Source: Candidatus Woesebacteria bacterium UBA5941
Lineage (GTDB): Bacteria > Patescibacteriota > Microgenomatia > UBA8517
DNA: 64,000 nucleotides
Direction of reading: 5' to 3'
Assembly (NCBI GenBank): GCA_002430735.1
Contig: DJCV01000013.1
Coordinates: forward strand, 33,460-97,459
Shown here: positions 4,468-37,109 of the stretch, one piece after another
How positions within the stretch are numbered: position 1 is the stretch's first letter
How the letters are laid out: each line of letters starts with the position of its first letter
Notes under the pieces: generated by a model
Seen by the model: only the letters and a program-made list of their open reading frames with translations
Database searches by the model: none
What the model was told of the DNA's origin: nothing
Made by a program: the position numbers and the translations under genes

Positions 4468-4471
<4 letters not shown>
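3014..4471 (+). CDS. atpA: ATP synthase F1 subunit alpha.
   Basis: It has the Walker A 'GDRKTGKT', is 485 aa long, and is followed by the gamma and beta genes. Confidence 0.95.
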
Positions 4472-6948
<2,477 letters not shown>

Positions 6949-7918: not shown

Positions 7919-8219
7919 TTCCCCACTTGACGGGCAGTTTTGTAATGATTTATATTTTTACTCAGAAGAGCTCTTGCTTAAATTTAAGTACTAGAAAGAG
8001 ATCTTTACTGCACTCTAGAGGCCTGGAGTAATAGTAAAAATCTTTTTGCACTTTGTCTGATGTCTGGTCTGTTGTTTGCGTTCGTTGAAATTGCGCGACA
8101 CGCCCTTTGTCTGCTTTGAGTTTGGTTAGTGGTGGAGTTCAGGAGGGCGTTGTCTGCGTTCTCATTTTCGAAACTTCGTATACAGTGAGGATGCTTCTTG
8201 TCCTTTTATGTTTGTCTTT

Positions 8220-8294
8220 TGGTGCCTTTGGAGGGAATTGAACCCCCATCGTACCCTTAGGACGGGTCCGCTCTATCCGTTGAGCTACAAAGGC
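8220..8294 (-). tRNA. tRNA-Arg, anticodon CCT, with encoded CCA.
   Basis: The reverse complement reads GCCTTTGTAGCTCAACGGATAGAGCGGACCCGTCCTAAGGGTACGATGGGGGTTCAATTCCCTCCAAAGGCACCA. The acceptor is GCCTTTG/CAAAGGC, the T-loop is TTCAATT, and the anticodon loop GTCCTAA gives CCT. One G-A mismatch sits at the top of the anticodon stem. Confidence 0.75.
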
Positions 8295-8372
8295 GAACGC
8301 TTTGCGTTCCTATTCTACCATTTCTACCGCAACAGTTGCGTCTATGCGCTACAATTAATGTTCACGCTAAGG

Positions 8373-9371
8373 ATGGCACGAAAACTACTGGTTACGGGCG
8401 GTTGCGGCTTCATTGGGAGTAACTTTATTTCATATTGGTTTTCCAGATACCCTAAAGATTCAATTACAAACCTTGATGCGTTAACATACGCAGGGCACCT
8501 GTCTTCAACGGCACATTTCGCAGATAACAAGAACTACCACTTTATTAAAGGAAGCATTCTGAATAAGCGTGTGGTTGAGCGTGCAATGAAGGATGTTGAT
8601 ATTGTTGTTCATTTTGCAGCTGAAAGCCATGTTGATAGATCTATTAAAAATCCGACTCTTTTTCTCGAGACGAATGTACTCGGAACACAAGTCCTTCTTG
8701 AATCAGCATTACGAAATAAGATTAAACGATTTCATCATATTTCAACGGATGAAGTATATGGTGCTTTGGAGTTTAATACCGGAGAGAAATTTTCTGAAGA
8801 GACAAGCTACCGACCAAGGAGTCCTTATGCTGCATCAAAGGCTGCCTCAGATCATTTAGTGCAGTCATACGCACATACCTTTGGACTTCCTACGACGATC
8901 ACAAACTGTAGTAATAACTTCGGGCCTTTTCAGGATCCAGAGAAATTTATTCCACGGCTTATTACAAACTGTATTGAGGATAGGAAAGTTATGCTGTACG
9001 GTGATGGGCTCAATGTTCGAGATTGGTTACATGTTGAGGACCATTGCCGGGCAATCGATCTCGTGATTACGAAAGGAAGTATTAACAATACCTATTGCAT
9101 TGGAGGGCAGGTAGATGAGGTGAGTAACCTTGAGGTTGCGACTCGCGTGTTGAATTATTTTAATAAGAGTACGGATCAGATTGCATTTGTAACAGATCGA
9201 TTAGGACACGACAGGCGATATGCCGTCAACTGGACTAAGATTCGAACAGAACTTGGGTGGAAACCTCGGTATCAATTTGATGAATGGCTAACAGCAACTA
9301 TTAAATGGTACGAAGAAAATACTGCTTGGTGGAGGCCATTGAAAGAACGTGCTGAGAAATTGTATCGCTAA
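8373..9371 (+). CDS. rfbB: dTDP-glucose 4,6-dehydratase.
   Basis: It has the Rossmann 'LLVTGGCGFIGSNF' motif, 'YAASKAASDHLV' (the YxxxK motif) and 'HISTDEVYG'. The ORF-track start at 8208 lies inside the tRNA-Arg gene, so the start was moved to the MARKLL methionine (333 aa). Confidence 0.85.
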   Translation: MARKLLVTGGCGFIGSNFISYWFSRYPKDSITNLDALTYAGHLSSTAHFADNKNYHFIKGSILNKRVVERAMKDVDIVVHFAAESHVDRSIKNPTLFLETNVLGTQVLLESALRNKIKRFHHISTDEVYGALEFNTGEKFSEETSYRPRSPYAASKAASDHLVQSYAHTFGLPTTITNCSNNFGPFQDPEKFIPRLITNCIEDRKVMLYGDGLNVRDWLHVEDHCRAIDLVITKGSINNTYCIGGQVDEVSNLEVATRVLNYFNKSTDQIAFVTDRLGHDRRYAVNWTKIRTELGWKPRYQFDEWLTATIKWYEENTAWWRPLKERAEKLYR

Positions 9372-12446: not shown

Positions 12447-13784
12447 TTGACGACTGAAAAACGAGATAAAGAAAATAAAGAGTATGAACATAGACTTTTT
12501 GATATAATAACCAATATGTCTTCCCTAAAGATGGATCTTCCTGTGGGCACTAAAGTGCCTGATCATATTGCCATTATTCCAGATGGAAATAGACGATGGG
12601 CACGAGCACGAGGGGTTAATACACTTCAAGGACATAAAAAAGGATTTGAAAGAGCCGTTGAGCTTGGTCGTGCTGCTCGGAGAGCGGGTGTCCATACTGT
12701 TTCTCTGTGGGGGTTTTCCACTGAAAACTGGGATCGGTCACCAAGAGAAGTTGATTATTTAATGAAACTCTATGTGAAGCTGATAGATGATTATCTCAAA
12801 GAAGCTGATGAAGATGAAGTCCGTCTGATTCATTTGGGACGGAAGGATCGAATCCCAAAGTTTTTAATGAAGAAAATTACTGAAGCGGAAGAAAAAACTC
12901 GACATCACAAGCGGCACGTTGCTAATCTTGCAATAGACTACGGAGGGCATGATGATATTTTGCGAGCGGTTCGAGCAATGGTCAAAGATGGATTAACTCC
13001 TGAGGAAATAGATAAGTCTACTTTTGAAAATTATCTTGATACAAAGGATCAGCCGTATCCGTATGTTGATTTATTAATCAGAACCTCAGGTGAGCAGCGA
13101 ACAAGTGGGCTGCTTCTTTGGCAGATGGAATATGCAGAAATGTATTGGGAAGAAAGTCATTTTCCTGATTTTACGACAGATAAATTGCGTGAGGCTATTA
13201 TTGATTATTCTAGACGAAGGCGCCGATTCGGCGGAAATGATGCCCATGAACATTTCAAATTTAAACCGGCAGTAACGGCAAAACTTGAAGTAAAATGGTG
13301 GAGACTTGCAAACATCCCTCAAGGTACACGATTCACTGATTATGCGATCTCACATTTAAAGGAGCAGTGGGGATTATCAAAGCAGCTTGCCAAAGATGCA
13401 GCGCACTTAATGGTCACGGCATTTATCGATTGTGAGAAGGAAAAGTGGCAAGAGGCTCAGGAAAAGCTGAAACAGTGTTATGAATTAATTAAGAGTGAAG
13501 CAAAACTAGCATTTGAGCCTGCACTTGCCGCAAAACTGCAAATGAGTTTATGGCAAAAAGCACAGAACTCAGGATCAGTCAGTGAACTGGATGCGACAAG
13601 TCGAGAACTTGTTTCAGAAGTATATAGAATCTCAGACTTTCAGGCTGCTAAAGCTGCTCATTTGATGAGCCTTGCAACCGTCGAGCGGGAACTTGCCACT
13701 GGAGATGAAAACGATCCCCATTGGAAAAAGGCTGAAGATTATTTAGAGAAATACTACTTAGCGCTTAAAGAACGAGTGGCTTGA
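12447..13784 (+). CDS. uppS: Isoprenyl transferase (undecaprenyl-diphosphate synthase) carrying a C-terminal helical extension of about 190 aa.
   Basis: 'HIAIIPDGNRRWA' and the 'RTSGEQRTSGLLLWQ' cis-prenyltransferase motifs are present. Total length is 445 aa, against about 250 aa for a typical UppS. Confidence 0.8.
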   Translation: MTTEKRDKENKEYEHRLFDIITNMSSLKMDLPVGTKVPDHIAIIPDGNRRWARARGVNTLQGHKKGFERAVELGRAARRAGVHTVSLWGFSTENWDRSPREVDYLMKLYVKLIDDYLKEADEDEVRLIHLGRKDRIPKFLMKKITEAEEKTRHHKRHVANLAIDYGGHDDILRAVRAMVKDGLTPEEIDKSTFENYLDTKDQPYPYVDLLIRTSGEQRTSGLLLWQMEYAEMYWEESHFPDFTTDKLREAIIDYSRRRRRFGGNDAHEHFKFKPAVTAKLEVKWWRLANIPQGTRFTDYAISHLKEQWGLSKQLAKDAAHLMVTAFIDCEKEKWQEAQEKLKQCYELIKSEAKLAFEPALAAKLQMSLWQKAQNSGSVSELDATSRELVSEVYRISDFQAAKAAHLMSLATVERELATGDENDPHWKKAEDYLEKYYLALKERVA

Positions 13785-13938
13785 AGAACCACAAAATTAA
13801 TTTGCGTGCAAGTGCCTAACTCTAGTATTTTTTTGCCCAGAAAATCGGTTTTTCTCAATTGACAGTTTTCTTCCGTTTATGCTTCAATGAATGACTGAGT
13901 AGTGCCTATGCAAAAGCTACTCAATACCTACTTATTTC

Positions 13939-16900
13939 ATGCCTAACGACCTGCCCACCGAGCCTAAATACATCGCAATCCGCACAGCAGCCGAGTTTCT
14001 TGGAGTGTCAATTGATACATTACGTAGATGGGACAAGCAGGGCATTCTAAAGGCACAAAGACCGAACGGCAAAGATCGTGTTTTTCTGGTTAAAGACTTA
14101 GAGCGATTTAAGTACGCACATCCACTTCAGGTCTCCGAAGCTGCAGACCTTCTGGGCATGTCTATTTCGACATTAAGGCGTCTTGAGACACGAGGGAAGC
14201 TCGTTCCTAAGCGCGACAGTAATGGTAGGCGTATTTACAATTTTGCAGAGCTTGCACGATTCGCAAAAAATGTCCCTTCAGACAAAGTAGCTGTTACTCA
14301 ATCTGAGGTCAATATTTTAACCAAAGATGCGGTTGCGGCACGTATTGAGGTAGACACTATATTGCGCCGCGTACGACGAGTACGCAGTATTGTTGCTTCG
14401 CTAGCAATCTTTGTTGTAGTTTCTATTACAACCCTCACCGTACTCTTTTTGCTTTACCCATCAGAAACAGCAGATTTTTTTGAGCTCACTGAGCCAGAGT
14501 ATGTAAGCAATGGTGTTATTTTAAACAGGTCAGTGCTTGGGGTTGCCAATTCAAACGAAGCTTCTGGTATTACTCCTATTATTATTTCATTATTTAGGCC
14601 ACTTGCAAAGGTTTCTCTGAACCTTGTTGGTCAAATAGATGAAGAAAAGTATCAGATCGCCACGCGTTCACACATTATTGACGGAGATTCTCTGCTGCGG
14701 AGCATTAGCTCAATTGAGATAAGCGATTCATCAGACTTTATTATCACCGATACAAGTGTTATTCATAATTTGAATGCTGAGCTCCTTGACGGCCGACAGG
14801 TAGGATCTAACCCAGGTAACCTTGTCGTAATTGATGACAACGGAAAGATTAACCCTGATCTTATTGACTATTCGACAGTTGAGGTTGCATTCACAATTGA
14901 GGATAGAAGTATTGGTGGTGCTCAAATAGAACTCGATACGATCGAGAATGAAAATATCGCTAATAGTGCTATTACAAGCAATAAGATTGAAGATGGAACC
15001 GTGTCCTCAAGCGATCTTGCTGATAATGCAGTTATTACCGCAAAAATTGCGGATAATGCAATTACTGGCGCTAAAATTGATAATGGAACAATTACGACAT
15101 CCGACCTTTCAACAGGGCTTAGTTTTTCAAGTAGTACACTCATTGATTTGTCTGCCGTTACTCATACATCAACTACACCTCAAGGGTTAGTTCTCCCAAA
15201 TGCGTCCTCTGCAAATCCTTCTGGTCCTTCAACTGGGGAAGGGTATTTGGCCTGGGACACCTCTGGGAATCAGTTAATTGTTTATGATGGTGCCAGTTGG
15301 GGCACCCTCGCTGGAACAGGCGACATTACCGGAGTCACTGCCGGTTCAGGTGTAACCGGTGGTGGTGCAAGCGGTGGTGTAACAGTAAATGTTGGAGCAG
15401 GAAATGGAATTACAGTTAACGCGGATGATATTGCCATAAATTTGGCAACAAGTGGTACAACTGGGGGGTCTTCGAGTAACTCAGGTCTTGAAGTAGGTTC
15501 AGGAGGGCTCAGTTTGCTAAAAGGTTGTAGTGATAACCAGATATTAAAGTGGACTGACGCTGGAGGATGGGCATGTAGTAACGATACTGGCAGTGGCAGC
15601 ACTGTTTCTGTTGAAGAAGGCGATTCATCGGTGACAGCAACGCTTTCGACACTCGACTTTTTAGCAGCAGACTTTATTGTGCAAGAAAGTCCGTCTGGAG
15701 AAGCGAATATTAGTGTCGACTATGCAAATTCCGGTATTACTCGAGTCAATCAAGCGCAAGTTGTTACCGGGGGATGGACCTTTAATACTGCGGCAACAAC
15801 GTTTACCACCGATCTTATCGCCAATGGGGGTATTACGCTTGCAAGCGGTGAAACCATTTCAAACGGGAGCGATTCAACAATCACCTTAGGTCGAAATGAT
15901 GCTGGAACTGTTACATTAAATGCAAAAGATGATGATGCAACAGCAGCGTTAACCATTCTTCCAGGAGGAGCAGCTGCATTAACACTTGGAGGAAGCGCTA
16001 CCACCGGAATTACGCTCGTAACAGATTCAACGGGTGATAGTGAAGTGGTCTTGCCTGCCAGTTCAATTGGGAATAGTGAGTTGGTCAACTCAGGGCTGAC
16101 ATTTGCCGGAAACTCCGGAAGTGGAAGTGTTGCCTTGGGTGGAACATTTACTATTGTAGGGGCTGGCATTAATAATGCTGTATATTCTGGCGGCACAGTT
16201 ACCATTACTGGAACTGAAGCAGACACTTTGGCAAGTGTAACTGGTCGAGGAGCTACTTCATCGACAGCACTCACCTTATCTTCAACGAGCAATGCAATTA
16301 CTGTGGGAACACTCACTATCTCCGGTGATGCATTTACTGATTTAACAGGGACTGGACTTACTATTTCCGGTGGAGCGTTAAACACAACCCTCGGGGTTGC
16401 CATTGATAGTAGCGAGATTACCGATGCCACAATTGGAAATGGCGATATCGCAAATGACACAATTGATCTTGACAAAGTTTCAGACACATTAACACTCGAC
16501 GCTGCAACCTCAATTACCGCAAGCGGTGCGCTCGGCCTTACCATTGGAAACAATGTGACGCTTTCTGCAACAGGCACGGGAGCTATTGTTGCAACTGATC
16601 TCTCTTGTACCGACTGTATTACTTCAACAGAAATTAGTGAGCTCACATTAGGCACTGACACTGCTGGTAATTATGTGGCTACCGTAACTGGGGGGGCAGG
16701 ACTGACGGGTTCCGGGGCAAGCGAGGGATCCACTCCAACTCTGGCTGTTGGAGCTGGAAATGGTATTACGGCGAATGCAGATGACATTGCCGTTAACCTG
16801 ACATCAAGCGGAACAACGGGCTCGACTTCAAGTAACTCAGGCCTTGAAGTAGGAAGTGGAGGGCTCAGTTTATTAAAAGGCTGTAATGATAATGAAATTT

Positions 16901-19900
16901 TAAAGTGGACTGACGCAGGTGGGTGGGCGTGTGCAACTGACACCTCTGGGAGTGGATCAGCTGCCGTTCAAGAAGGAGACTCAGGGGTCGTCGCCTCACT
17001 TTCGACACTCGACTTTTTGGCAGCAGACTTTATCGTTAGCGAGAGTCCATCTGGTGAGGCAAATATTAGTCTTGATTATGCAAATTCAGGTGTCACCCGT
17101 GTCGGGCAAGCTGAAACAGTAACCGGTGGCTGGACGTTTAATACTGCGGCAACTACCTTCACTACAGCAATTGACGTAAACTCCGCATCAACGGTCGCAG
17201 GCTTAACGGTTGACGGAAACGGCAGCCTCTCTGTATCAAATGGTTCACTTGATGGGGCACTTTCTCTTTCAGGAACCACCAGCGATAATGGACTGCAAAT
17301 TGGTCTGACAAACGGAACAAGTGGAGGAACTCAAAACATTGCCTACTTTGATAATGCTGCATCGAGCGGTACTACTGAAAGCATTTTGGTTATTGATAAC
17401 AGTGATACTGACACCGCTGTTACGAATGCAATTGAATTTATAAATGCAGGTGGAGGTTTTACCAATCTGTTTAATGTCGCGGGGACAACTATTAGTTCTG
17501 GTGAGTTCACACTTCTCGATGGACGTGATACAGCACTTGTCGATACAACTGATGCTGTATCAACCGCTATTACTGGTACAGGCACATTAACTGCAGGGGC
17601 AACAGGAGCTGGATTTACCATTAACTTCGGAACATCAACTCTCTCGGGCAATATCACGGGAACTAATATCTCAGGTGTAGATATTTCAGATGATACTAAT
17701 CTTACGGTGACAAATGGCATTACTCTCACGGGCGATCAGTTGAGCCTTGCCTCAACTGCTGCCGGTGATGGATTGACCTACACAACAGGAGTACTCGCGA
17801 TTGGTTCAGGCGCGGGAATTACCGTTTCTGCTGATGCAATTGCGGCAACATTGGGCACTTCAATCGCGAATTCTGAAATCGACAACGATGCGATTGATTT
17901 TGATAAAGTGTCAGACACCTTAACGCTTGATGCTGCAACATCTATTACAGCGAGTGGTGCTTTGGGACTTACGATCGGTAACAATGTGACGCTTTCAGCA
18001 ACAGGTACAGGAGCCATTACTGCAACGGACCTTTCTTGTACTGACTGTATTGGTTCAGCTGAAGTCGGTGAGTTAACACTTGGCACAGACACCGCAGGAA
18101 ACTATGTAGCAACTGTTACAGGTGGAGCAGGACTCACCGGTTCAGGCTCAAGCGAAGGATCAACTCCAACCATCGCTGTTGGTGCAGGGAATGGAATTGC
18201 AGTTAACGCTGATGACATTGCCGTTAATCTCACATCAAGCGGCACAACTGGTTCTACTTCAAGCAATTCAGGGCTTGAAGTTGGAAGTGGAGGGTTAACC
18301 CTTCTTAAGGGGTGTAGTGATAATGAGCTCTTAAAGTGGACTGACGCAGGTGGGTGGGCGTGTGCCACTGATACTTCAGGAAGTGGTGCTGCTGCTGTTC
18401 AAGAAGGAGACTCAACCATTGTAGCCTCACTATCAACACTCGATTTCTTGGCAGCAGACTTTATTGTAGGAGAATCTCCATCAGGGGAAGGAAATATATC
18501 AATTGATTATGCAAATTCAGGAATTACCCGTGTGGGGCAAGCTGAGACAGTAACGGGTGGTTGGACGTTTAATACTGCATCCACAACATTCACTACTGCA
18601 ATTGATGTAAACACAGCTTCAACAATGGCTGGACTGACTGTTGATGGCAATGGTAACCTCTCTGTTTCAAATGGAACCATAGATGGAGCAATCTCACTCT
18701 CTTCTACAACCTCTGATAATGCGACTCAAATCACACTCACAAACGGCACGAGTAGCGGAACTCAAAATATTGCCTACTTTGATAATGCTGCTTCTACTGG
18801 AACAACCGAAAGCATTGTGGTTATTGATAACAGTGATAGTGATACGGCAGTGACGAATGCAATTGAATTTGTAAACGCTGGAGGCGGGTTCACCAATTTG
18901 TTTAATGTTGCAGGCACAACTATTTCAACCACAGAGTTTACGCTCCTTGATGGACGAGACACCGCTTTGGTTGATACAACTGATGCGGTTGCAACAGCAA
19001 TTACAGGAACTGGAACTTTAACTGCAGGTGCAACGGGAGCTGGGTTTACCATTAACTTCGGAACATCAACCCTTTCAGGCGACGTAACAAGCGCAAATAT
19101 TTCAGGGGTCGATATTAGTGCTGATACAAACCTTTCAGCCTCTAATGGAGTGACGTTAACAGGAGATGCATTAAGCTTGTCATCTGCAGCGGGTGGCGAT
19201 GGATTAACATACACAACAGGCGTACTTGCTGTTGGCGCAGGGACGGGTATTTCAGTTGCAGCTGATGCAATTTCTGCAACATTGGGCACTTCAATTGCCA
19301 ACGCTGAAATCGATGATGATGTCATTAATTTTGACAAAATTGCGAACGCGTTAACACTTGATGAAGGCACAACAATAACAGCGGGCGGTGCATTAGGGCT
19401 CACGATCGGTAACAACGTCACTTTGTCAGCTACCGGGACAGGAGCGATTACTGCAACAGACTTGTCATGTGCAGATTGTATTAACGGCACCGAAATTGGC
19501 GACTTAACATTAGGGACAGACACAGCTGGAAACTATGTTGCCACAATTACCGGTGGGGCAGGACTGACCGGTTCAGGTTCAAGTGAAGGTTCCACTCCAA
19601 CGCTCGCTGTTGGAGCAGGTAACGGAATTACAGTGAACGCAGATGACATTACGATTGCGTTAACCGGAAGCGGCACAACTGGTTCTACTTCAAGCAATTC
19701 AGGACTTGAAGTTGGTTCTGGTGGACTCAGTCTCTTAAAGGGTTGTACTGACACTGAAATATTAAAGTGGACCGATGCCGGAGGATGGGCCTGTGCTGCT
19801 GACGAAACAGGCGGGGGAGGTTTCACAAGCTTCACTGCTGCAGGAGACTCAGGTGGTGGTCAAACGATTTCTGACGGAAATTCGTTATCTATTTTAGGTG

Positions 19901-22422
19901 GAACAAATGGAATTGATACCGTTGATAGTGCAACTGATACCGTGACCTTAAACCTTGATACAACTGAAATTGGAACAACCACATTTGGATCAGGAAGCGG
20001 GATTACCTGGACGTTTAATGCAGGAGCAACGGACCCTGTAATTGCATTTGGATCAGATACCATCGACTTTACGGCAGGTACGACTACGCTCTCTGGGAAC
20101 CTCACCGTTTCAGGGGGAACAATTTTAGGTGTCGCGACCAGTAATTTGTTAAATTCAGTAACCACAACATTAAACTTTGCAGGAGCCGCTACAACGTTAA
20201 ACATTGCTGACGGTGCAACTACCAAAACGATTGATATCGGGGGCGTGACTGCTGATGGCACTGACACAATAAATATTGCAACAAATGCCACTTCTCCAGA
20301 TGTTATTTCAATTGGAAACGGGCATGGGGTATCAAGTATCGCGCTTACATCAGGTGACTCATGGGCAATTAGCGCGAATGGTGTAATGACTCTTTCTGCT
20401 GATTCATCACAAACCACGGCGATTGTTGCAACAGATACTGACTACACGAATTTTGCCTCAATTGGCGACAACAATATCATAGGGACAACTGCTGCAATTG
20501 ACCTTACAAACTTTGACGTTGCTTCAACCGGTGCGCTTACCTTGGTTGGCGGATTGTCTCCAGATATCACGACGCAGTCAAATAATAATTTGACTATTCA
20601 GCCAGGAGGGACTGGTGCAATTATATTTAATTCAAGTAATACTTCAGCGTCTGCAATCGACATTAATGCAACGGGTACCGTTGCCGGGAATGCGTTCACG
20701 CTTGATACTACCAACGGTGGTATTGCGCTCACTGCTGGTGGTGCTTCAAACGGGGATATTACGATTCTTTCAACTGATGACTTGAGTATAAATGGAACAG
20801 CAGGTTCTGTGGTCAATATTGGAACATCAGCGGTAGCTCAAACAATTGCAATTGGTGCTTCAAGTAACACTGACCTTGCACTTGCTGACGCACAATGGAG
20901 CATAACCGGTGCTGGGGTTGCAAGCTTTGTTTCAGGAACGGTACTCGGATCTCAAACATTTACAACAAATAACATCGTTGACAGCGGAGCTCTTACTATT
21001 AAATCAGCAACCGGAGCTAATGCCTTAACGCTTGATTCAGGGTCTACAGGAACGGTGAACCTTGGTACGAGCAACAATGCGAAAACTATTAATATTGGAA
21101 CGGGAACACAAGGGAATACTATTCTCATTGGAACAGACAATACCACCTCTGACACGATTACAATCGGTACTGCACTAGATAACGTTTCAATTGTGGGTGA
21201 CTCCTGGTCAATTACCGATGCGGGGGTTTTGACCGTAGCATCATGTAGTGGATGTGGAGGCGGTGGAGGAACGTTGCAACAGGCTTATAGCGGTGATGCT
21301 GACGGTAGTAATGCGATCATTTTAACTGACTCAACTGATGGATCTGTTATTATCCAAACCGTGGCTGGAACACAGTTCCAAGTTGCTGCAACTGCTGCTC
21401 CAACTGTTGACCTTGCTTCAATCACAAATGCTGGTCAAGGAGTCACAAGTACGAGTGGTGTTGACGGGTTATCAATAACCTATGTGCAAGCAACAGACGC
21501 AGGCGCCATCACCGGGAGTGGGCTCGATGTGACATTAACTCCTTCTGGAGACGCCTCAGACGTTATCCGTGGAATCACCCTTAACAACATAACCAGTGGA
21601 AGTTCAACAGAGACTGGTTTGTATGTGGGAACTGGGTATGATCGTGATATTGAATTTGCAGACAGTACCCCAACAATTAGATCAGCCGATGGTGCAGTAC
21701 TTTCATTCACCGATGGAACAAACACGATGGCTTCTATTAAAGACCAAGGGACTTATGCATTTTTAAACATCACTCCAAAAGGAACGGCATCCGATCCAGC
21801 GACTTGTGCTGTTGGTGATGTGTACGTAAATAGTAGTGACGCGACGATTAAAGCTTGTACCGGAACTGATACCTGGGAAGCACTCGATGGCGGTGGTGGA
21901 GGCGGAACTAAGGTTGTGACGTTACATCCAGAATTCCCAGGCGCAACCCTTACCGCCAACGGAAGTGCGACTATTAATGGAACCATGACCTCAGATGTTA
22001 CCGGAAGTGCTGATGGATGGAAGAATTTCTATGAATGGAATTCAAGTCAAACAAGTTTGCAAGACTATACCGTTGCTGTTCGGTTCAAACTTCCATCTGA
22101 CTTTTCATCGTGGGCTACTTCGAATGCCATTGTTGTTAATTATGTAACAGAATCAACAGCAAACACCAATAATAAAATTGATATCGATATTCGAAACGAA
22201 GACGATACCCCAGGAACGACCGTGACTACGTCTTCAGCAAATGTCTCAGGAGTTGCAGCAACATGGACATCCGTTGCCATTGATGACTCAGTAATTGACG
22301 ATGGTGCGGCACCGGACATTGACGCAGCGGGTGAGGACATCGTTTTGTTAATTAAGCTTTACTCAAAAGACTCAAATTACTCACGAGTTGGTGATATTGT
22401 CCTAACATATACTGCCCAATAA
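13939..22422 (+). CDS. Giant (2827-aa) membrane-tethered surface protein. It has two N-terminal cytoplasmic MerR/excisionase-type HTH domains, a single TM helix, tail-fibre-like motifs, 3.5 tandem repeats of about 475 aa, beta-helix-like G/T/S-rich repeats, and a C-terminal beta-rich domain.
   Basis: It is a single uninterrupted ORF. The HTH motifs are 'IRTAAEFLGVSIDTLRRWDKQGIL' and 'VSEAADLLGMSISTLRRLETRGKL'. The TM helix is 'IVASLAIFVVVSITTLTVLFLLY'. 'GYLAWDTSGNQLIVYDGASWGTL' resembles phage tail-fibre repeats. Repeating blocks include '...LKGC(S/N)DN(E/Q)ILKWTDAGGWAC...TLSTLDFLAADFIV.ESPSGE.NIS.DYANSG(I/V)TRV'. Confidence 0.85.
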   Translation: MPNDLPTEPKYIAIRTAAEFLGVSIDTLRRWDKQGILKAQRPNGKDRVFLVKDLERFKYAHPLQVSEAADLLGMSISTLRRLETRGKLVPKRDSNGRRIYNFAELARFAKNVPSDKVAVTQSEVNILTKDAVAARIEVDTILRRVRRVRSIVASLAIFVVVSITTLTVLFLLYPSETADFFELTEPEYVSNGVILNRSVLGVANSNEASGITPIIISLFRPLAKVSLNLVGQIDEEKYQIATRSHIIDGDSLLRSISSIEISDSSDFIITDTSVIHNLNAELLDGRQVGSNPGNLVVIDDNGKINPDLIDYSTVEVAFTIEDRSIGGAQIELDTIENENIANSAITSNKIEDGTVSSSDLADNAVITAKIADNAITGAKIDNGTITTSDLSTGLSFSSSTLIDLSAVTHTSTTPQGLVLPNASSANPSGPSTGEGYLAWDTSGNQLIVYDGASWGTLAGTGDITGVTAGSGVTGGGASGGVTVNVGAGNGITVNADDIAINLATSGTTGGSSSNSGLEVGSGGLSLLKGCSDNQILKWTDAGGWACSNDTGSGSTVSVEEGDSSVTATLSTLDFLAADFIVQESPSGEANISVDYANSGITRVNQAQVVTGGWTFNTAATTFTTDLIANGGITLASGETISNGSDSTITLGRNDAGTVTLNAKDDDATAALTILPGGAAALTLGGSATTGITLVTDSTGDSEVVLPASSIGNSELVNSGLTFAGNSGSGSVALGGTFTIVGAGINNAVYSGGTVTITGTEADTLASVTGRGATSSTALTLSSTSNAITVGTLTISGDAFTDLTGTGLTISGGALNTTLGVAIDSSEITDATIGNGDIANDTIDLDKVSDTLTLDAATSITASGALGLTIGNNVTLSATGTGAIVATDLSCTDCITSTEISELTLGTDTAGNYVATVTGGAGLTGSGASEGSTPTLAVGAGNGITANADDIAVNLTSSGTTGSTSSNSGLEVGSGGLSLLKGCNDNEILKWTDAGGWACATDTSGSGSAAVQEGDSGVVASLSTLDFLAADFIVSESPSGEANISLDYANSGVTRVGQAETVTGGWTFNTAATTFTTAIDVNSASTVAGLTVDGNGSLSVSNGSLDGALSLSGTTSDNGLQIGLTNGTSGGTQNIAYFDNAASSGTTESILVIDNSDTDTAVTNAIEFINAGGGFTNLFNVAGTTISSGEFTLLDGRDTALVDTTDAVSTAITGTGTLTAGATGAGFTINFGTSTLSGNITGTNISGVDISDDTNLTVTNGITLTGDQLSLASTAAGDGLTYTTGVLAIGSGAGITVSADAIAATLGTSIANSEIDNDAIDFDKVSDTLTLDAATSITASGALGLTIGNNVTLSATGTGAITATDLSCTDCIGSAEVGELTLGTDTAGNYVATVTGGAGLTGSGSSEGSTPTIAVGAGNGIAVNADDIAVNLTSSGTTGSTSSNSGLEVGSGGLTLLKGCSDNELLKWTDAGGWACATDTSGSGAAAVQEGDSTIVASLSTLDFLAADFIVGESPSGEGNISIDYANSGITRVGQAETVTGGWTFNTASTTFTTAIDVNTASTMAGLTVDGNGNLSVSNGTIDGAISLSSTTSDNATQITLTNGTSSGTQNIAYFDNAASTGTTESIVVIDNSDSDTAVTNAIEFVNAGGGFTNLFNVAGTTISTTEFTLLDGRDTALVDTTDAVATAITGTGTLTAGATGAGFTINFGTSTLSGDVTSANISGVDISADTNLSASNGVTLTGDALSLSSAAGGDGLTYTTGVLAVGAGTGISVAADAISATLGTSIANAEIDDDVINFDKIANALTLDEGTTITAGGALGLTIGNNVTLSATGTGAITATDLSCADCINGTEIGDLTLGTDTAGNYVATITGGAGLTGSGSSEGSTPTLAVGAGNGITVNADDITIALTGSGTTGSTSSNSGLEVGSGGLSLLKGCTDTEILKWTDAGGWACAADETGGGGFTSFTAAGDSGGGQTISDGNSLSILGGTNGIDTVDSATDTVTLNLDTTEIGTTTFGSGSGITWTFNAGATDPVIAFGSDTIDFTAGTTTLSGNLTVSGGTILGVATSNLLNSVTTTLNFAGAATTLNIADGATTKTIDIGGVTADGTDTINIATNATSPDVISIGNGHGVSSIALTSGDSWAISANGVMTLSADSSQTTAIVATDTDYTNFASIGDNNIIGTTAAIDLTNFDVASTGALTLVGGLSPDITTQSNNNLTIQPGGTGAIIFNSSNTSASAIDINATGTVAGNAFTLDTTNGGIALTAGGASNGDITILSTDDLSINGTAGSVVNIGTSAVAQTIAIGASSNTDLALADAQWSITGAGVASFVSGTVLGSQTFTTNNIVDSGALTIKSATGANALTLDSGSTGTVNLGTSNNAKTINIGTGTQGNTILIGTDNTTSDTITIGTALDNVSIVGDSWSITDAGVLTVASCSGCGGGGGTLQQAYSGDADGSNAIILTDSTDGSVIIQTVAGTQFQVAATAAPTVDLASITNAGQGVTSTSGVDGLSITYVQATDAGAITGSGLDVTLTPSGDASDVIRGITLNNITSGSSTETGLYVGTGYDRDIEFADSTPTIRSADGAVLSFTDGTNTMASIKDQGTYAFLNITPKGTASDPATCAVGDVYVNSSDATIKACTGTDTWEALDGGGGGGTKVVTLHPEFPGATLTANGSATINGTMTSDVTGSADGWKNFYEWNSSQTSLQDYTVAVRFKLPSDFSSWATSNAIVVNYVTESTANTNNKIDIDIRNEDDTPGTTVTTSSANVSGVAATWTSVAIDDSVIDDGAAPDIDAAGEDIVLLIKLYSKDSNYSRVGDIVLTYTAQ
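15300..19800 (+). repeat. Intragenic tandem direct repeats of about 1.35-1.43 kb, about 3.5 copies, inside the giant gene.
   Basis: The 'LKGC.DN.ILKWTDAGGWAC' block recurs at about nt 15525, 16870, 18305 and 19740. Copies 2 and 3 are about 85-90% identical at the protein level over about 475 aa. Confidence 0.8.
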
Positions 22423-22429
22423 ACGCCCC

Positions 22430-24184
22430 ATGAAGAAACTAATGAACATTATTTTTAAACAGGCAAAAAGAAGCTTTCGTTCCGTTCTTCAATGGTGGCG
22501 GCATCTTTCTAAACGAACGCAGTTGAGTTTGAGTCTCTTTGAACTTGCGATTGTGTTCTTCGTGCTGCCAAACATTCATGGTGGTTTGAAAATTTTGGGG
22601 TTTGTAGAGAAAGACTTTATCGTCTCAACATCTGGTGCACTGTATGAAACCAATAACAATCCTTATTTTCGTGCACTAATTGGTAGTAGTAGCGATACCA
22701 AACAGTCTATTCTGAAATTTGAAATACAAGGTAAAACAGTAACCATAGGACTTCTTGATGCTGCAGAAGAAGCACCGGTTGTGAAACTTGTTGATGTAAA
22801 TGAGACTCCTTCTAACCTTATTATCCCTGAATCGCTCATACATGCTGAGGCTGAACTTGCCTCAGCTGAAGCTGTGTTGCAAGAAATTGCGAATAAAACC
22901 TATGAGGTTAGCCAAGAGGTATCAGAGATTATTGGAGAAGCTGAGCAGACGTTTTTTGGCCCGCGCGAGCAGATTGTTTTAAGAGCAATTGAAAAAATAA
23001 ACAAAGTTACCTATTATCGGAAACAGAACGCTCTCATTGAGACGATAGAACTTGTAAACCCAGACATTGAAACACTTCACTTTGTAGTGAAATCTCCCGA
23101 CATTTCTGTTCGTAAAACTCGATTGCAAGATTGGAACTTAGTGAGTGAAGGGAATGGGCTCATGACCGTTAAAACGCACATGGTGGATGGTCGTGGTGCA
23201 GTCTCAGCGCTACCTGAGGTAGATAATGCATTTACTGAAAGCACTGATGACACTATTCACCATTTGCTTCTACCCGTTGAGTGGATGCAATCACCCTCTC
23301 GAGTGTTCCCTCTGAAAGTTGTCCGCACATTTGCTCCTCTTGAGCCAGTACATGACTCTCTCGAATCCAAGCTACAAAATATAGTTGGAGAACAGTTTGT
23401 AGAACTCTCACTATTTACGTCTCACAACCCGCGGTTCTTAACCCTTTTCAAGGGAGATGTTTTATATTGGGAAGCACTATCAGGCACTATTTCACTTATT
23501 CAAAATGGAAATACAATACCGCTTTTTACCGAGCCGTTACTGTCAGGGCTTTCATGCACTGATAATGGGTGTTTCGCAGCAAGGACAGATACCATTCAGT
23601 TTTTTAACCCAACAGACATACTAAATCGCTTGCCTGAATCAGATATCAACACATTTTTCGAAAGTTTAAAGGTTTCTGATACTCCACTTGGTGGAATCGC
23701 TGTTGGGAAAGGTACAATTCTTCGTACAAGCTATTCAAGTCCAACAGGAGCCGTATATGGATCAAGCACTTTTGGTGGTGTCGAAAATAAAGTATATGAA
23801 AATGTAAGTTTTCCGTCGTTTCCAGCGGTCAGTGAAGACGGGCAATATCGAAGTTTTTGGGCTGAAGGGAAGCTGTTTATAGGTGAGGCAAATAGCAACT
23901 GGCAAACCATTTCAATCCCATTTGAACCTGAGTCAGTTTCCATTGGAAATGACAACCGTGTTTATTTTATAGTTAAGTTTGATCCTTTGCAGACGGATAT
24001 GGTTGTGCGAGTGACACCAGGTTTGGGACTTGAGATTCTCTCACACGTTACCGGGGACTTTAGTTCACTTCATATCACGAATGACACTCTCTACCTTGGG
24101 TTGAATATAGATGAACGGAACGGAGCTGTTTTGAAATTGCCACAGAATATTTTGGCATGGAATCAATGGAATGAATATGAATAA
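22430..24184 (+). CDS. Hypothetical membrane-anchored protein (584 aa). It is in an operon with the giant protein, and its stop overlaps the next start.
   Basis: It is a long ORF. The N-terminal signal anchor is 'LSLSLFELAIVFFVLP'. It lies 8 nt downstream of the giant gene, and the stop/start overlap is atgaatatgaataa. Confidence 0.6.
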   Translation: MKKLMNIIFKQAKRSFRSVLQWWRHLSKRTQLSLSLFELAIVFFVLPNIHGGLKILGFVEKDFIVSTSGALYETNNNPYFRALIGSSSDTKQSILKFEIQGKTVTIGLLDAAEEAPVVKLVDVNETPSNLIIPESLIHAEAELASAEAVLQEIANKTYEVSQEVSEIIGEAEQTFFGPREQIVLRAIEKINKVTYYRKQNALIETIELVNPDIETLHFVVKSPDISVRKTRLQDWNLVSEGNGLMTVKTHMVDGRGAVSALPEVDNAFTESTDDTIHHLLLPVEWMQSPSRVFPLKVVRTFAPLEPVHDSLESKLQNIVGEQFVELSLFTSHNPRFLTLFKGDVLYWEALSGTISLIQNGNTIPLFTEPLLSGLSCTDNGCFAARTDTIQFFNPTDILNRLPESDINTFFESLKVSDTPLGGIAVGKGTILRTSYSSPTGAVYGSSTFGGVENKVYENVSFPSFPAVSEDGQYRSFWAEGKLFIGEANSNWQTISIPFEPESVSIGNDNRVYFIVKFDPLQTDMVVRVTPGLGLEILSHVTGDFSSLHITNDTLYLGLNIDERNGAVLKLPQNILAWNQWNEYE

Positions 24185-27100
24185 GAAAAAATCAGTGTTC
24201 GCAGTATTACTTGTCATAGTGTTTATGGTTTCCTCCATGGGATTGCCACAACTTGTGTTATTTCAATCCCTCCAGAAGCCACTCCCGAAAACTCTTGAAA
24301 GAGCTCCAGAAGCAAAAGCTGAAAATGCGTACATTTCAGCTACAGCGTCAGTTACTACTGGAATACAAACCAATCATCATTCCTATACTCAGATAGCAGA
24401 TACCTTTGACTGGAGAATACTCACGACCGCTTCAGGACTCGATGCAACGGTAACATTCTCAAATGTTGCGCTGAATAGTGCCAACGTATTGTATGTGAAC
24501 TACAACGGGTCAGCTTCATCCGCATCATTAACGTACGAAATTCAGATTCGTGATTTTACTGCAGGCACATGGAGAACCATTAACCCACATGCAACAACGC
24601 TGGCCAACGTAACCGACCAGGCCGCCGGGCTTTTGTATCAGCCGACTGCTGCGGTTGCTGGAATGGGGCAGATCGCAATTTATGATGGATACTTTAGTAA
24701 TGGAAGCAACTCACCAGTTTCAATCCCATTGTCTGACTTTGTAAATGATAGTAATGAAGTGCAAATTCGATTCCTATCAGCCACAGTGACACCGAATCTT
24801 GAAATGCGTATTGATTATTTGTCTGTTGAACCAGCAATAGAAAACATGAAATATGCATCTTCTATGACAACTGCAGCAGGCACCGTTTCCAATGAATATA
24901 ACGATACAACAACAGACGACAATACAACAAACTTATCTATTGCGGCGACCGCAAGTGGTATTGACACATATTTGTCGTTTACGAACATGCCAACCCCGTA
25001 CACCGGGGCGAACGTTATTTTGGTGGAATATTCAGGAAATGATGACGCGTCACTTTCTGATTACAGTATTCAAGTCCGTGATTTCACTAACGGCCAATGG
25101 GATACGTTAAACGGAACTGTTTTAAATAGCGCAACTGATACCACCCATTACTTTGCAACTTCAACAGCACAAGCTGTTACAGACTATATCTCAGGAAATG
25201 AAATTCGGATTCGGTTTGTTTCAACTGATACGTCGGGTACTTTAAATATTGATTTTGCTCGAGTGACTATTGGGTCAGTCATGACTAATACAGGATTTTA
25301 TATAGATGAAATTAGTAGGGGATCTGTTTCAAGTGGAAGTGAAACAAACATGCAAACCATTGATACAACGTCAGCTGCATCTAGCTGGGTTCTTTCAACA
25401 AGTGCTTCAGATGTCACCGCAACAACCCAGTATCCAGGTGACTGTAATGCGGCTACTAATAACTGTGTTGGGGTAAATTTACAGCTTCCAGTAACTGTTC
25501 CTTCAAACACGATGGTAACCGGTGTGCACACTATGTTTCGATACAACACTTCAAGCGCAAACATCGATATGGAGTTTGGGATACGGAATGTGATGAATGG
25601 AAATATGGCGGTGACAACTGCTGTTGCCGATGAAACATCTCTTCAGTCGATGCGAAGGGAGTTAAGCTATCCAATGCCTCCACAAGTTGGAACAGACCCT
25701 TTGGTAACAGTTCCTGTGTATGAGCCCGAGTATTATGTAAACACAATAAACGATGCAATTAATTTTTATGCTCGATCTGCAGCTTCGTCGGCAAGTGGAA
25801 CGCTCACTCTTGATTTTGTCTTTGTCTCAATACGATATTTAGGCCCTTATAAAAGTGTGAGTAACAGATGGGTGCCTACTGGTGCAACGATTACAAACGG
25901 AACAAACAACGCCTCAAACTTTAGGTATGCAAACAGGGATGACTCAAACTATTATTCAGTTACTCCTAGTGGTAGTGGTACTGATTATTACTTGTCTTTC
26001 TCGAACGTTGAGATACCAACAAATGCCAATAAAATTATTATTGACACCCGCGCCCGTTCAAGCGCAGCTTCTCAAACGTATGAAATATATCTTTACGACT
26101 TTGTGAATACGACGTGGAGGGAAGTTACTCCGCATAGTACGAATTACACTTCTGATGGTACGCTAAGCACCGAGGAGTTAGTTCAAGTGGAAGTGTACGA
26201 TGGGTATTTTAGTAACGCGAGCGATGCACCTGTTTCAACGCCAATTTCAAATTTTGTGAGTTCTTCACAAATGCGTGTGCGATACGTAATGGCAAGTACA
26301 ACTAATCGTTTAGAGATTGATTGGGTAAATGTAGAGATTGCAAATGACCCGGTTTATTTTGCTGCAGATTCAACGATTACCAACGGAACTATTACAAATG
26401 AATATAATGATACAACGACAGATGATGCAACAACGAGTTATACAATTACAAATTCAAGCGGAATTGATTTTTACCTATCATTTAAAAATGTGTTGACTCC
26501 GCCCACGGGAGCGGATACTGCGTATTTACATGTGTCATCGCATATGACTGCAGGCGCAGGAAGTTATACTATTTCACTTTACAACTTTAATACAACGAGT
26601 TGGGTCCCATTTAATGGAACGGTATTAACACACACTTCCGATCGAACTGATTACTACTTCCTCAACATTTCTAATTGGGCTCATTATATTAGCGGTAACG
26701 AAATGCGCGTAAGGTTCAACTCAGCTTCAGCAGGAGGGACTATTGTTGTCGATTATGCCAAGCTAGCTCTTGGGTCTGTAACAAATAGTACCGTGGGACA
26801 AACAATTGATCTTGGAGGAACATATGTAAACTCATATTCAGAAACTGCAACACTTGATACCAGTAACTTTGTAGCACTTGAAAATTCATGGGGTATTCGC
26901 AGTCATCCAAACACGCAGTCTGCAGAGGCACTAGAAGCTCCAGCCTCAATTGCATTGACAGTGAATTATCCACTCACCGTACCGACGAATGTGTATCCTT
27001 CAGGCATCATTTGGGCAATGAAAGGGTCTAGTAATGCGACAACTATTTCACCAACTGTGTCATTTACCAATACAAAAATCGGTACTCGAGTTGCGACAAA

Positions 27101-27335
27101 TGCGCGAGGGGTAACGCTTGCTCTCAATGCACTCCCGAACGCGGGTGATTTAGGAACGTTTGCTTCAACAACCGAAGTTATGAGAGAAGGGTGGTTTATC
27201 GAAAACACGGCGAATGCTCTTTTGAACGAACAAAATATGGTTCAAATGCGTATTAGAACAACTGCTTCTACGCTCTTAGGCCCTGCATATTTTATGATTG
27301 ATGCAGGGTTTGTAGCTTTAAGGTACGCTGAATAA
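24171..27335 (+). CDS. Large secreted repeat protein (1054 aa). It has a signal peptide and four beta-rich modules of about 160 aa of two alternating types.
   Basis: The signal peptide is 'KKKSVFAVLLVIVFMVSSMG'. Type-A modules carry 'YEIQIRDF..W' and 'YDGYFSNGS..PVS.P.S.FV'. Type-B modules carry 'NEYNDTTTDD.TT...SGID.YLSF.N' and 'YISGNE.R.RF'. It is dense in N-x-S/T sequons. Confidence 0.7.
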   Translation: MNMNKKKSVFAVLLVIVFMVSSMGLPQLVLFQSLQKPLPKTLERAPEAKAENAYISATASVTTGIQTNHHSYTQIADTFDWRILTTASGLDATVTFSNVALNSANVLYVNYNGSASSASLTYEIQIRDFTAGTWRTINPHATTLANVTDQAAGLLYQPTAAVAGMGQIAIYDGYFSNGSNSPVSIPLSDFVNDSNEVQIRFLSATVTPNLEMRIDYLSVEPAIENMKYASSMTTAAGTVSNEYNDTTTDDNTTNLSIAATASGIDTYLSFTNMPTPYTGANVILVEYSGNDDASLSDYSIQVRDFTNGQWDTLNGTVLNSATDTTHYFATSTAQAVTDYISGNEIRIRFVSTDTSGTLNIDFARVTIGSVMTNTGFYIDEISRGSVSSGSETNMQTIDTTSAASSWVLSTSASDVTATTQYPGDCNAATNNCVGVNLQLPVTVPSNTMVTGVHTMFRYNTSSANIDMEFGIRNVMNGNMAVTTAVADETSLQSMRRELSYPMPPQVGTDPLVTVPVYEPEYYVNTINDAINFYARSAASSASGTLTLDFVFVSIRYLGPYKSVSNRWVPTGATITNGTNNASNFRYANRDDSNYYSVTPSGSGTDYYLSFSNVEIPTNANKIIIDTRARSSAASQTYEIYLYDFVNTTWREVTPHSTNYTSDGTLSTEELVQVEVYDGYFSNASDAPVSTPISNFVSSSQMRVRYVMASTTNRLEIDWVNVEIANDPVYFAADSTITNGTITNEYNDTTTDDATTSYTITNSSGIDFYLSFKNVLTPPTGADTAYLHVSSHMTAGAGSYTISLYNFNTTSWVPFNGTVLTHTSDRTDYYFLNISNWAHYISGNEMRVRFNSASAGGTIVVDYAKLALGSVTNSTVGQTIDLGGTYVNSYSETATLDTSNFVALENSWGIRSHPNTQSAEALEAPASIALTVNYPLTVPTNVYPSGIIWAMKGSSNATTISPTVSFTNTKIGTRVATNARGVTLALNALPNAGDLGTFASTTEVMREGWFIENTANALLNEQNMVQMRIRTTASTLLGPAYFMIDAGFVALRYAE

Positions 27336-27345
27336 CCTGAAACAT

Positions 27346-34903: not shown

Positions 34904-34913
34904 CCTTACCACT

Positions 34914-37102: not shown

Positions 37103-37109
37103 TACCCAT

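Follow-up and report, generated by a model that had tools for sequence, protein, structure and literature searches.

The window analysed here, a 64,000-nucleotide (nt) stretch of contig DJCV01000013.1 from Candidatus Woesebacteria bacterium UBA5941, carries a giant open reading frame (ORF) at 13939–22422. It encodes a protein of 2,827 amino acids (aa), 1,432 of which are Thr, Gly, Ala, or Ser and 18 of which are Cys. A tandem array of long repeat units lies inside this ORF, and the array and the protein that carries it are the subject of this report. Coordinates are window positions, and features are on the forward (+) strand unless marked (−).

Direct-repeat analysis of positions 13500–23000 gave start-to-start spacings of 1356, 1431, and 1431 nt within the ORF, with repeat families consisting of 200- to 300-nt segments in two to four copies each at 69–79% DNA identity. 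When the giant protein was compared with itself, sharp maxima appeared at an offset of 477 aa (aa 819–1497 against 1296–1974), and a second maximum appeared at 452 aa (aa 463–649 against 915–1101). An earlier note on this DNA had described a long-period tandem repeat of about 1350–1435 nt in the giant gene, and both the repeat and its period hold up, while the 3.5 copies that it counted come to three units plus about 0.2 of a unit. Tandem Repeats Finder reported only 30-nt and 21-nt repeats and missed the long array because its longest period is 500.

A hidden Markov model (HMM) built from units 2 and 3 recovered three full copies (aa 466–914, 915–1391, and 1392–1868; E-values 1e-107 to 1e-292) as well as a partial fourth. 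Unit 1 (15325–16680; aa 463–914, 452 aa) has its flanking blocks in common with unit 2 (16681–18111; aa 915–1391, 477 aa) and unit 3 (18112–19542; aa 1392–1868, 477 aa) and differs from them in its middle cassette. Partial unit 4 (19543–19860; aa 1869–1974, 106 aa) consists of the leading Gly-rich block and the hairpin block only. Units 2 and 3 stand head-to-tail with 407 of 477 residues identical, as befits a tandem intragenic array.

Each full unit runs from a Gly-rich strand block through a hairpin module of about 40 aa with a Cys pair, a sheet domain, and a middle cassette to a CxxC block. The sheet domain is small and four-stranded and reads 'LDFLAADFIV...SPSGEANISxDY'. All of the conserved blocks that had been quoted were located in the protein: 'GLEVGSGGL(S/T)LLKGC.D..(I/L)LKWTDAGGWAC' occurs four times (aa 516, 968, 1445, and 1922), 'LSC(T/A)DCI' three times (aa 888, 1365, and 1842), and 'TLDFLAADFIV' three times.

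The middle cassette is the variable part of the unit. Unit 1 contains a type-A cassette (15886–16392; aa ~650–818) that is not homologous to the type-B cassettes in the middles of unit 2 (17242–17823; aa ~1102–1295) and unit 3 (18673–19254; aa ~1579–1772), and BLASTP found no similarity between the unit-1 and unit-2 middles (E 9.7). Matching cassettes occur in other family members, one in P0107 that shares 70% identity with the unit-1 cassette over 169 aa and one in P0047 that shares about 71% with the middles of units 2 and 3. The possibility that unit 1 is simply a diverged copy was ruled out, as its middle is unrelated to that of unit 2 yet matches the P0107 cassette. Judged by these cassette matches, unit 1 is a mosaic that arose by cassette exchange, and the difference between the 1356- and 1431-nt spacings stems from this swap and not from an indel.

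The near-identity of copies 2–4 had been taken as a sign of recent expansion or concerted evolution, and the array as a likely site of copy-number variation and short-read assembly collapse. Near-identity does describe the short protein blocks, which are almost invariant among the copies, but not the whole units, since identity between units 2 and 3 is 85% at the protein level and 76% in DNA. Their codons differ at 15% of first, 6% of second, and 50% of third positions. Nei–Gojobori estimates gave a proportion of synonymous differences (pS) of 0.63, a synonymous divergence (dS) of 1.34, a nonsynonymous divergence (dN) of 0.10, and a dN/dS of 0.078; this dS is near saturation, so the age of the duplication is a lower bound only. 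The blocks that units 1 and 4 have in common with the others gave dN/dS values of 0.07–0.13 with dS of at least 1. In the 36-residue hairpin block, 32–34 residues are identical between copies, and the codons for these residues are identical in just 15–23 cases, that is, in roughly half.

Exact in-register runs shared by units 2 and 3 reach 35 nt at most, the best 90-nt window reaches 87% identity, and neither the windows nor the exact runs in this DNA comparison gave any sign of gene conversion between the two units. Units 2 and 3 thus have none of the near-identical DNA, low dS, and long identical tracts of a recently expanded or concertedly evolving array. From its substitution pattern, the unit 2/unit 3 duplication is judged to be old and to have occurred within the lineage, with the copies kept by strong purifying selection on the protein, because dS is near saturation, DNA identity is 76%, dN/dS is low, and exact runs are short.

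The assemblies give the same picture. The exact 2,827-aa protein occurs on at least nine public contigs, including two JGI contigs of ~942 kb and a 27-kb SPAdes contig with 378x coverage, and these are 100% identical to the window over 12.5 kb. On the 120-kb contig of a fourth assembly (L018; JGI 3300013289), the protein is a variant, also of 2,827 aa, whose gene differs at 7 nt. Gene length is therefore the same on four contigs that were assembled separately, from different samples and with different assemblers, and the copy number of the array is reproducible among assemblies. As the copies have diverged and the longest exact run is 35 nt, reads of 100–150 nt can be placed uniquely, which leaves little room for the suspected assembly collapse.

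Over 10.5 kb, the only differences between L018 and the window are these seven substitutions, all within the array at 16942–16943 and 18107–18123 and bunched at the unit 2/unit 3 junction. Gene conversion was rejected as their origin, since the variant bases match none of the paralogous copies, and for the same reason they look like local consensus errors or micro-variation.

A recently expanded or concertedly evolving array that is a copy-number hot spot and a likely short-read mis-assembly would account for the almost invariant protein blocks and for the location of all L018 differences within the array, and relatives of the giant protein do carry long-period repeats with 95–100% identity (in P0063, a 318-aa unit repeated about 10 times). 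The synonymous divergence, the DNA identity, the short exact runs and the limit on 90-nt windows, the constant gene length on four contigs, and the L018 bases that resemble no paralogous copy all contradict it, and this explanation is very improbable. Copy-number variation is a trait of the family, since 37 of 49 giant relatives carry arrays of differing periods, but it was not seen in this gene. The repeat observation of the earlier note is thus real, and its evolutionary interpretation is largely wrong. Near-identity of repeats at the protein level implies neither recent expansion nor assembly risk, and it is divergence at synonymous sites that decides.

The wider family was collected by searching one repeat unit against 1.84 billion cluster representatives, of which 440 matched at E ≤ 1e-3 and 51 also at E ≤ 1e-30. 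The sequences of 27 of the best matches were inspected, and the census was based on 186 retrieved members. Relatives come from Microgenomates, Woesebacteria, Amesbacteria, Daviesbacteria, Roizmanbacteria, and others, and many have lengths of 2,000–5,800 aa and as many as 22 matched stretches. The hairpin and the sheet motif 'LDFL..DF.V..SP.GEANI.IDY' together make up a composite module of ~120 aa that occurs near full length 67 times in 55 proteins. Scans of 42 module instances against Pfam and NCBIfam gave no consistent family.

Among the 49 members of at least 1,800 aa, 37 have a long-period internal repeat of their own (at least 60% identity over the best 150 aa), with periods of 119–968 aa and, in some cases, 100% identity. 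Tandem amplification of multi-cassette units is therefore a habit of the family, and the present array is an old example of it. The giant protein is ordinary within its family, whose cassettes are covered by no curated library. In P0063 (3,881 aa), the best self-offset is 318 aa at 100% identity over about 10 periods; such identical long units, here and in some other relatives, are either very recent amplifications or assembly artefacts.

Homologous giant genes were also seen on two long-read-style contigs, L016 (ENA ERZ25072999; 8471–20627) and L017 (ENA ERZ25039603; 10001–18418), where apparent frameshifts split them into several ORFs. Hairpin and CxxC motifs alternate with a period of ~3 kb in L016. 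In L017, just one unit was detected by the motif scan, with one match each to DFLAADF and GGWTF; the hairpin there has the form 'MLRGC', outside the accepted hairpin pattern.

The earlier note had counted four Cys in each repeat and proposed disulfide-stabilised modules in an extracellular setting. The count is correct, as each unit contains one C-x15-C hairpin block and one CxxC block. The hairpin modules lie at 15469–15594 (C530...C546), 16825–16950 (C982...C998), 18256–18381 (C1459...C1475), and 19687–19812 (C1936...C1952), the third being the start of the 125-aa hairpin-plus-sheet module (18244–18618) used for modelling. The CxxC blocks lie at 16600–16620 and 18031–18051 ('LSCTDCI') and at 19462–19482 ('LSCADCI'); in the first copy the conserved block extends into 'LTLGTDTAGNYVA'. 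Two further pairs lie beyond the array at 21244–21858, 'SCSGCGGGGG' (aa 2436/2439) and C2623...C2640, and motifs similar to these are visible in relatives. Pairs of the C-x15-C, C-x16-C, or CxxC type hold 16 of the 18 Cys in the protein.

Conservation across the family is strictly pairwise. The hairpin module was found 351 times in 138 family proteins, with Cys20 conserved in 100%, Cys36 and Trp34 in 99%, and Leu26 in 96% of instances; both Cys are present in 346 modules, the other five being truncated, and 14–16 residues separate them. The CxxC pair reads C..C in 28 instances and has both Cys replaced (V..G) in seven, and a single replacement was never observed. The number of Cys is even in 49 of the 58 family members over 1,500 aa. 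As the hairpin pair is invariant whether or not CxxC is present, the two pairs are independent, and two disulfides are therefore favoured over one four-Cys metal site.

A candidate enzyme for disulfide formation is encoded in the window. The ORF at 61562–63160 (−) encodes a 532-aa fusion of a VKOR domain (aa 22–145; 88.6 bits against a Pfam cutoff of 27.5) with dihydroorotate dehydrogenase (aa 215–511; DHO_dh, 163.6 bits), and VKOR is a DsbB-like oxidase family. A DsbA-like gene was seen on L017 at a distance of 5 kb from the giant homologue. With Cys conserved strictly in pairs, even Cys counts, and a VKOR encoded in the window, disulfide-stabilised modules are the best reading of the Cys pattern, as had been proposed. 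The joining of a disulfide-oxidase/quinone-reductase module to a quinone-dependent enzyme of pyrimidine synthesis is itself unusual, particularly in a small Candidate Phyla Radiation (CPR)-type genome.

Alternatively, the four Cys of a unit could form one metal site resembling a zinc ribbon, or a metal on the fibre axis could be bound by the CxxC blocks of three chains. The CxxC motif is a classic knuckle for metal binding, and phage fibres often have metal ions on their three-fold axis. The hairpin pair, however, is invariant in 351 modules, including those in proteins or units that lack CxxC, about 90 residues separate the two pairs, the predicted position is extracellular, and a VKOR is encoded. 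Metal binding of either kind is thus quite unlikely, and a single four-Cys site was rejected as the leading explanation because the two pairs are conserved independently.

At the N-terminus, two tandem MerR-type helix-turn-helix (HTH) domains (13978–14262; aa 14–108) were identified with Pfam. MerR (PF00376) scored 72.7 bits against a cutoff of 28.2 over two stretches, aa 17–57 and 65–108, and PF13411 also matched (57.8 bits), with MerR_1 and HTH_17 among the Pfam matches. NCBIfam gave weak HspR/excisionase matches, models of full MerR-type regulators scored far below their cutoffs, and the only match of the whole protein among PDB sequences was a MerR HTH (E 0.036). The domains are followed by an Arg-rich stretch ('LRRVRRVR') and a single transmembrane (TM) helix (14386–14457; aa 150–173), found from the sequence and a hydropathy scan. 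By the positive-inside rule, this arrangement implies a signal-anchor topology in which the HTH domains would be inside the cell and ~2,650 residues outside. As the HTH domains and the Arg-rich stretch precede the one TM helix, the remainder of the protein, including the repeats, is predicted to be extracellular, in agreement with the setting proposed earlier.

Thr, Gly, Ala, and Ser make up 51% of the ectodomain. Decapeptide repeats of the 'ADNAITxAKI' type occupy 14887–15120 (aa 317–394), and Tandem Repeats Finder reported a 30-nt period at 15017–15079. The whole giant protein matched phrog_446 'tail protein' at E 3e-4, with no single stretch passing alone. The C-terminal domain (21871–22419; aa 2645–2827, ~185 aa) is presumed to be the distal tip; it is common to P0088 (67% identity over 384 aa), P0146, P0046, and P0090, and its profile gave only chance matches to PDB.

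Several lines of evidence link the family to phage tail fibres. Peptidase_S74, which serves trimeric tail fibres and endosialidases as an intramolecular chaperone, scores 44–50 bits (cutoff 22) in relatives P0055 and P0065, and collagen repeats score 20–27.5 bits in P0055, P0048, and P0049, exceeding the cutoff of 27.2 in P0048 only. Thirteen of 42 hairpin-plus-sheet modules match PHROG 9729 'tail fiber protein' (best E 3e-5). With BLASTP, the decapeptides at aa 317–394 match proteins at E 1e-7 to 1e-13, and among the precomputed Pfam domains of these proteins are Peptidase_S74, T7 tail fibre, Mtd_N, Phage_fiber_2, and collagen. An AlphaFold2 (AF2) model of the 125-aa hairpin-plus-sheet module reached a mean predicted local distance difference test score (pLDDT) of 76.7 and contains eight strands, arranged as two beta-hairpins and a four-stranded sheet.

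On these grounds, the giant protein is read as a membrane-anchored, probably trimeric, tail-fibre-like surface filament whose anciently duplicated units would lengthen the shaft, and this reading is considered reasonably probable. The terms 'tail-fibre-like' and 'probably trimeric' are the best-supported description at present, albeit an unproven one.

A number of results weigh against it. The protein itself has no Pfam hit to Peptidase_S74, no 'SDxRxK' motif, and no match to collagen (PF01391); against PHROG 9729, none of its own copies of the module attains E 0.01, and searches of Pfam, NCBIfam, and PDB sequences gave no match over threshold in the ectodomain. Weak similarity to tail fibres can be inflated by a composition biased towards Thr, Gly, Ser, and Ala and by motifs of short period. 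The AF2 model of the whole 477-aa unit, from a 19-sequence alignment, was unusable (pLDDT 51), and the predicted template modelling score (pTM) of the 125-aa module was only 0.43. Fold searches gave nothing significant against PDB (best E 3.1) or BFVD (best E 0.055, TM-score 0.33), and the saturation of dS, noted above, leaves the antiquity of the duplication as a minimum estimate. The weak, non-significant BFVD list consists mostly of tail fibres, and the hairpin-module profile gave only chance matches to PDB sequences.

Some of these results would suit a monomeric beta-solenoid or beta-helix adhesin, or an S-layer-like coat protein, with no kinship to trimeric tail fibres and with repeats that add surface area. 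One relative is named 'beta strand repeat-containing protein' by NCBI, the composition is typical of beta-rich adhesins, and the absence of S74 and collagen domains and the non-significant fold matches are as expected for such a protein. AF2, however, is usually confident on single-chain solenoids and was not confident on the whole unit, relatives with the same modules carry the trimer-specific S74 as well as collagen repeats near the Pfam cutoff, and tail-fibre matches in PHROG extend to 13 of 42 modules. A solenoid or coat protein is therefore viewed as a doubtful alternative, although the most credible of those considered here.

Compared with phage tail fibres and tailspikes that carry Peptidase_S74, such as endosialidases and long tail fibres, the giant protein is alike in its long Thr/Gly/Ser-rich beta shaft of shuffled cassettes, and the same hairpin modules are joined to Peptidase_S74 and collagen repeats in relatives. 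It differs in lacking both domains, and so falls outside the S74 tail-fibre family as such, and in being encoded on the chromosome among cell-envelope genes (MreB, WecG, and UppS) and secreted proteins. No cluster of virion structural genes surrounds the giant gene, whose neighbours encode MreB, WecG, UppS, ATP synthase, and ribosomal proteins. A prophage tail-fibre gene was rejected in view of these housekeeping neighbours and the HTH-TM anchor, and as an N-terminal TM helix, preceded by the two HTH domains, anchors the protein in the membrane, it is not a component of a virion.

The hairpin module was also found on 7 of 2.9 million IMG/VR contigs. On one of these (L020, 7773–8921), a 382-aa protein with two hairpins is encoded 5 kb from a PHROG 'virion structural protein', and on another (L021, 5613–10538), a 1,641-aa protein has hairpin and CxxC blocks and neighbours without phage matches. 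The presence of the same modules on these viral-classed contigs suggests that fibre cassettes may be exchanged between CPR cells and their phages.

If the giant protein is a tail-fibre-like filament, its one TM helix would insert it with the N-terminus inside and the C-terminus outside, leaving the MerR-type HTH pair in the cytoplasm and ~2,650 residues of shuffled cassettes outside. Each repeat unit would add length to a rigid, probably homotrimeric fibre of the phage-tail-fibre type. T4 long tail fibres reportedly measure about 0.05 nm per residue, and by this rough analogy the ectodomain would span roughly 130 nm and each unit about 25 nm. The VKOR-type oxidase would turn each of the two Cys pairs into a separate disulfide within the module, and these bonds would stabilise the modules outside the cell. 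Such staples would suit a protein exposed on a cell without an outer membrane, and CPR bacteria, as far as is known, have none. The C-terminal domain would act as the distal binding tip in contact with another cell or surface.

The cytoplasmic HTH pair raises the possibility that the protein is instead a membrane-tethered transcription regulator with the ectodomain as its sensor, the repeats tuning reach or mechanics rather than adhesion. Both HTH domains are bona fide MerR-type domains on the cytoplasmic side, and among the 85 relatives of at least 1,000 aa, 28 begin with a MerR-type HTH, in 27 of them followed by a TM helix, with full-length N-terminal matches in Daviesbacteria and other relatives. 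The same topology is known in the ToxR/CadC family (PMC5430869). Another 37 of the 85, however, carry the same ectodomain modules behind a plain TM helix and no HTH, so the filament works without the DNA-binding domain. Promoter, terminator, and inverted-repeat scans around the giant gene found sites no commoner than in shuffled sequence, with no operator-like palindrome or inverted repeat upstream. A role that is regulatory rather than adhesive is accordingly thought unlikely.

In its most novel form, this alternative would make the giant protein a contact or force sensor, a fibre of more than 100 nm wired through the TM helix to a cytoplasmic tandem MerR DNA-binding domain, and this too is improbable to about the same degree. 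Contact with a host cell, by binding or pulling, would in this way reach the chromosome of the episymbiotic CPR bacterium, through a ToxR-like relay while the protein is membrane-bound or a Notch-like one after proteolytic release, and the repeat units would set reach and mechanical compliance. At least 27 large relatives have the HTH-TM-fibre architecture, and no curated family exists for the combined architecture or for the ectodomain modules.

Known regulators resemble the giant protein only in part. Like MerR-family regulators it has an N-terminal MerR-type HTH, but in place of a coiled-coil dimerisation helix and an effector-binding domain after one HTH it has a tandem HTH, a TM helix, and a 2,650-aa ectodomain. 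Its layout matches that of ToxR/CadC regulators (PMC5430869), with a DNA-binding domain at the cytoplasmic N-terminus, a single TM helix, and a C-terminal domain that is extracytoplasmic. It differs from them in having a tandem MerR-type HTH instead of an OmpR-type winged helix and an ectodomain of ~2,650 aa of fibre modules instead of a small sensor domain, and its regulatory role is putative.

The giant gene is chromosomal and lies in a context of 42% GC, with genes for ATP synthase (3014–6686), MreB, WecG, and UppS upstream and for ribosomal proteins and NusG further downstream. It is followed by three tightly packed genes (22430–30624) encoding a 584-aa TM protein and paralogous secreted repeat proteins of 1054 and 1092 aa. 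The intergenic spacing (a 7-nt gap, a 14-nt overlap, and a 10-nt gap) suggests that the three are probably co-transcribed with the giant gene, the short gaps and overlap being the sole basis for this. In the strain variant L018, too, the giant gene is followed by the 584-aa gene, and in L017 a 564-aa gene has the same position after the fragmented giant homologue. None of the three downstream genes had a PHROG match. The two paralogues contain repeated 'LTYEIQIRD(F/Y)..TWR.I.PH ... IYDGYFSNGS..PV..PLS.FV' domains, with a weak GH114_assoc match only and no NCBIfam matches.

Further genes in the window deserve mention. Adjacent paralogues of 244 and 246 aa at 31683–32417 and 32493–33233 (+) are N-terminally anchored and have no family match, and both contain 'PSV(L/M)G ... 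(V/I)MxLP.DE.PT(L/I)ATVS(E/D)AEK...Q(T/S)FFKNAQNGDK'. What looks like a cassette for peptide ligation or modification lies at 33983–38003 (+), where genes for a 7TM_transglut membrane protein and for a sugar-transfer-associated ATP-grasp protein with a Zn_protease tail are clustered with those for two RimK-like ATP-grasp ligases. A 1,441-aa protein with four PA14 domains is encoded at 42834–47159 (+), on the opposite strand to the flanking L10 and L1 genes; it lies between 41626–42168 (−) and 47178–47873 (−) and splits the normally contiguous nusG-rplK-rplA-rplJ cluster. The Rfam scan found two tRNAs only. The listed start of a GDP-mannose dehydratase/epimerase ORF at 8208–9371 (+) overlaps tRNA-Arg(CCT) at 8220–8294 (−), and as its Pfam domain begins at aa 61, the start codon is probably further downstream.

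Other giant surface proteins offer partial parallels. In Bap, RTX, SiiE, and Ebh adhesins, reach is likewise set by tandem duplication of a structural unit whose copy number varies among relatives. The present unit, however, is a 452- to 477-aa mosaic of at least five sub-blocks and not an Ig-like domain of ~100 aa, and the anchor is an N-terminal TM helix instead of a C-terminal sortase motif or a type I secretion signal. Ig, cadherin, and FN3 profiles had no Pfam or NCBIfam match on the giant protein or on the 42 module instances.

Giant membrane proteins of CPR bacteria have been proposed to build a fibrous host-binding surface, and a fibre-filled gap of ~100 nm between epibiont and host has been described (PMC8080830). 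Compared by description, those of Vampirococcus lugosii (1,392–4,163 aa; PMC8080830) are also giant predicted membrane-located proteins from a small-genome CPR bacterium, but they contain WD40, PKD, integrin, fibronectin, and DUF11 domains, none of which is present in the protein studied here, where no Pfam domain was found outside the HTH region. In Saccharibacteria, several adhesins are needed for epibiotic growth (PMC10633639).

Pam pili, built from PamA/PamB, are likewise CPR-specific extracellular filaments, and their paired pilin Cys are proposed to form disulfides (10.64898/2026.03.03.709456). They are polymers of 39- to 55-kDa signal-peptide pilins joined by donor-strand exchange, whereas here a single 2,827-aa chain would be the filament. 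Genes for a 'tail fibre-like protein' and for ATP synthase consistently adjoin the pam operon in CPR genomes (10.64898/2026.03.03.709456, section 9), and the window, likened by description only, also has ATP synthase genes and a tail-fibre-like giant gene. No gene set in the window matches the size and topology of a pam-like operon.

The array itself is ordinary, given that giant surface proteins commonly grow by tandem duplication, and in the present case the duplication is old and stable. What it exposes is a family of hundreds of giant proteins of Patescibacteria built from shuffled cassettes that are in no curated library. The architecture of this family is unusual in its undescribed cassettes, its resemblance to phage tail-fibre machinery, and its frequent position behind a cytoplasmic tandem MerR DNA-binding domain, as in about one third of the large members. 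In CPR bacteria, which live attached to other cells, a chromosomally encoded, membrane-anchored filament resembling a tail fibre would be a concrete candidate for host recognition, and one that is tractable for structural work.

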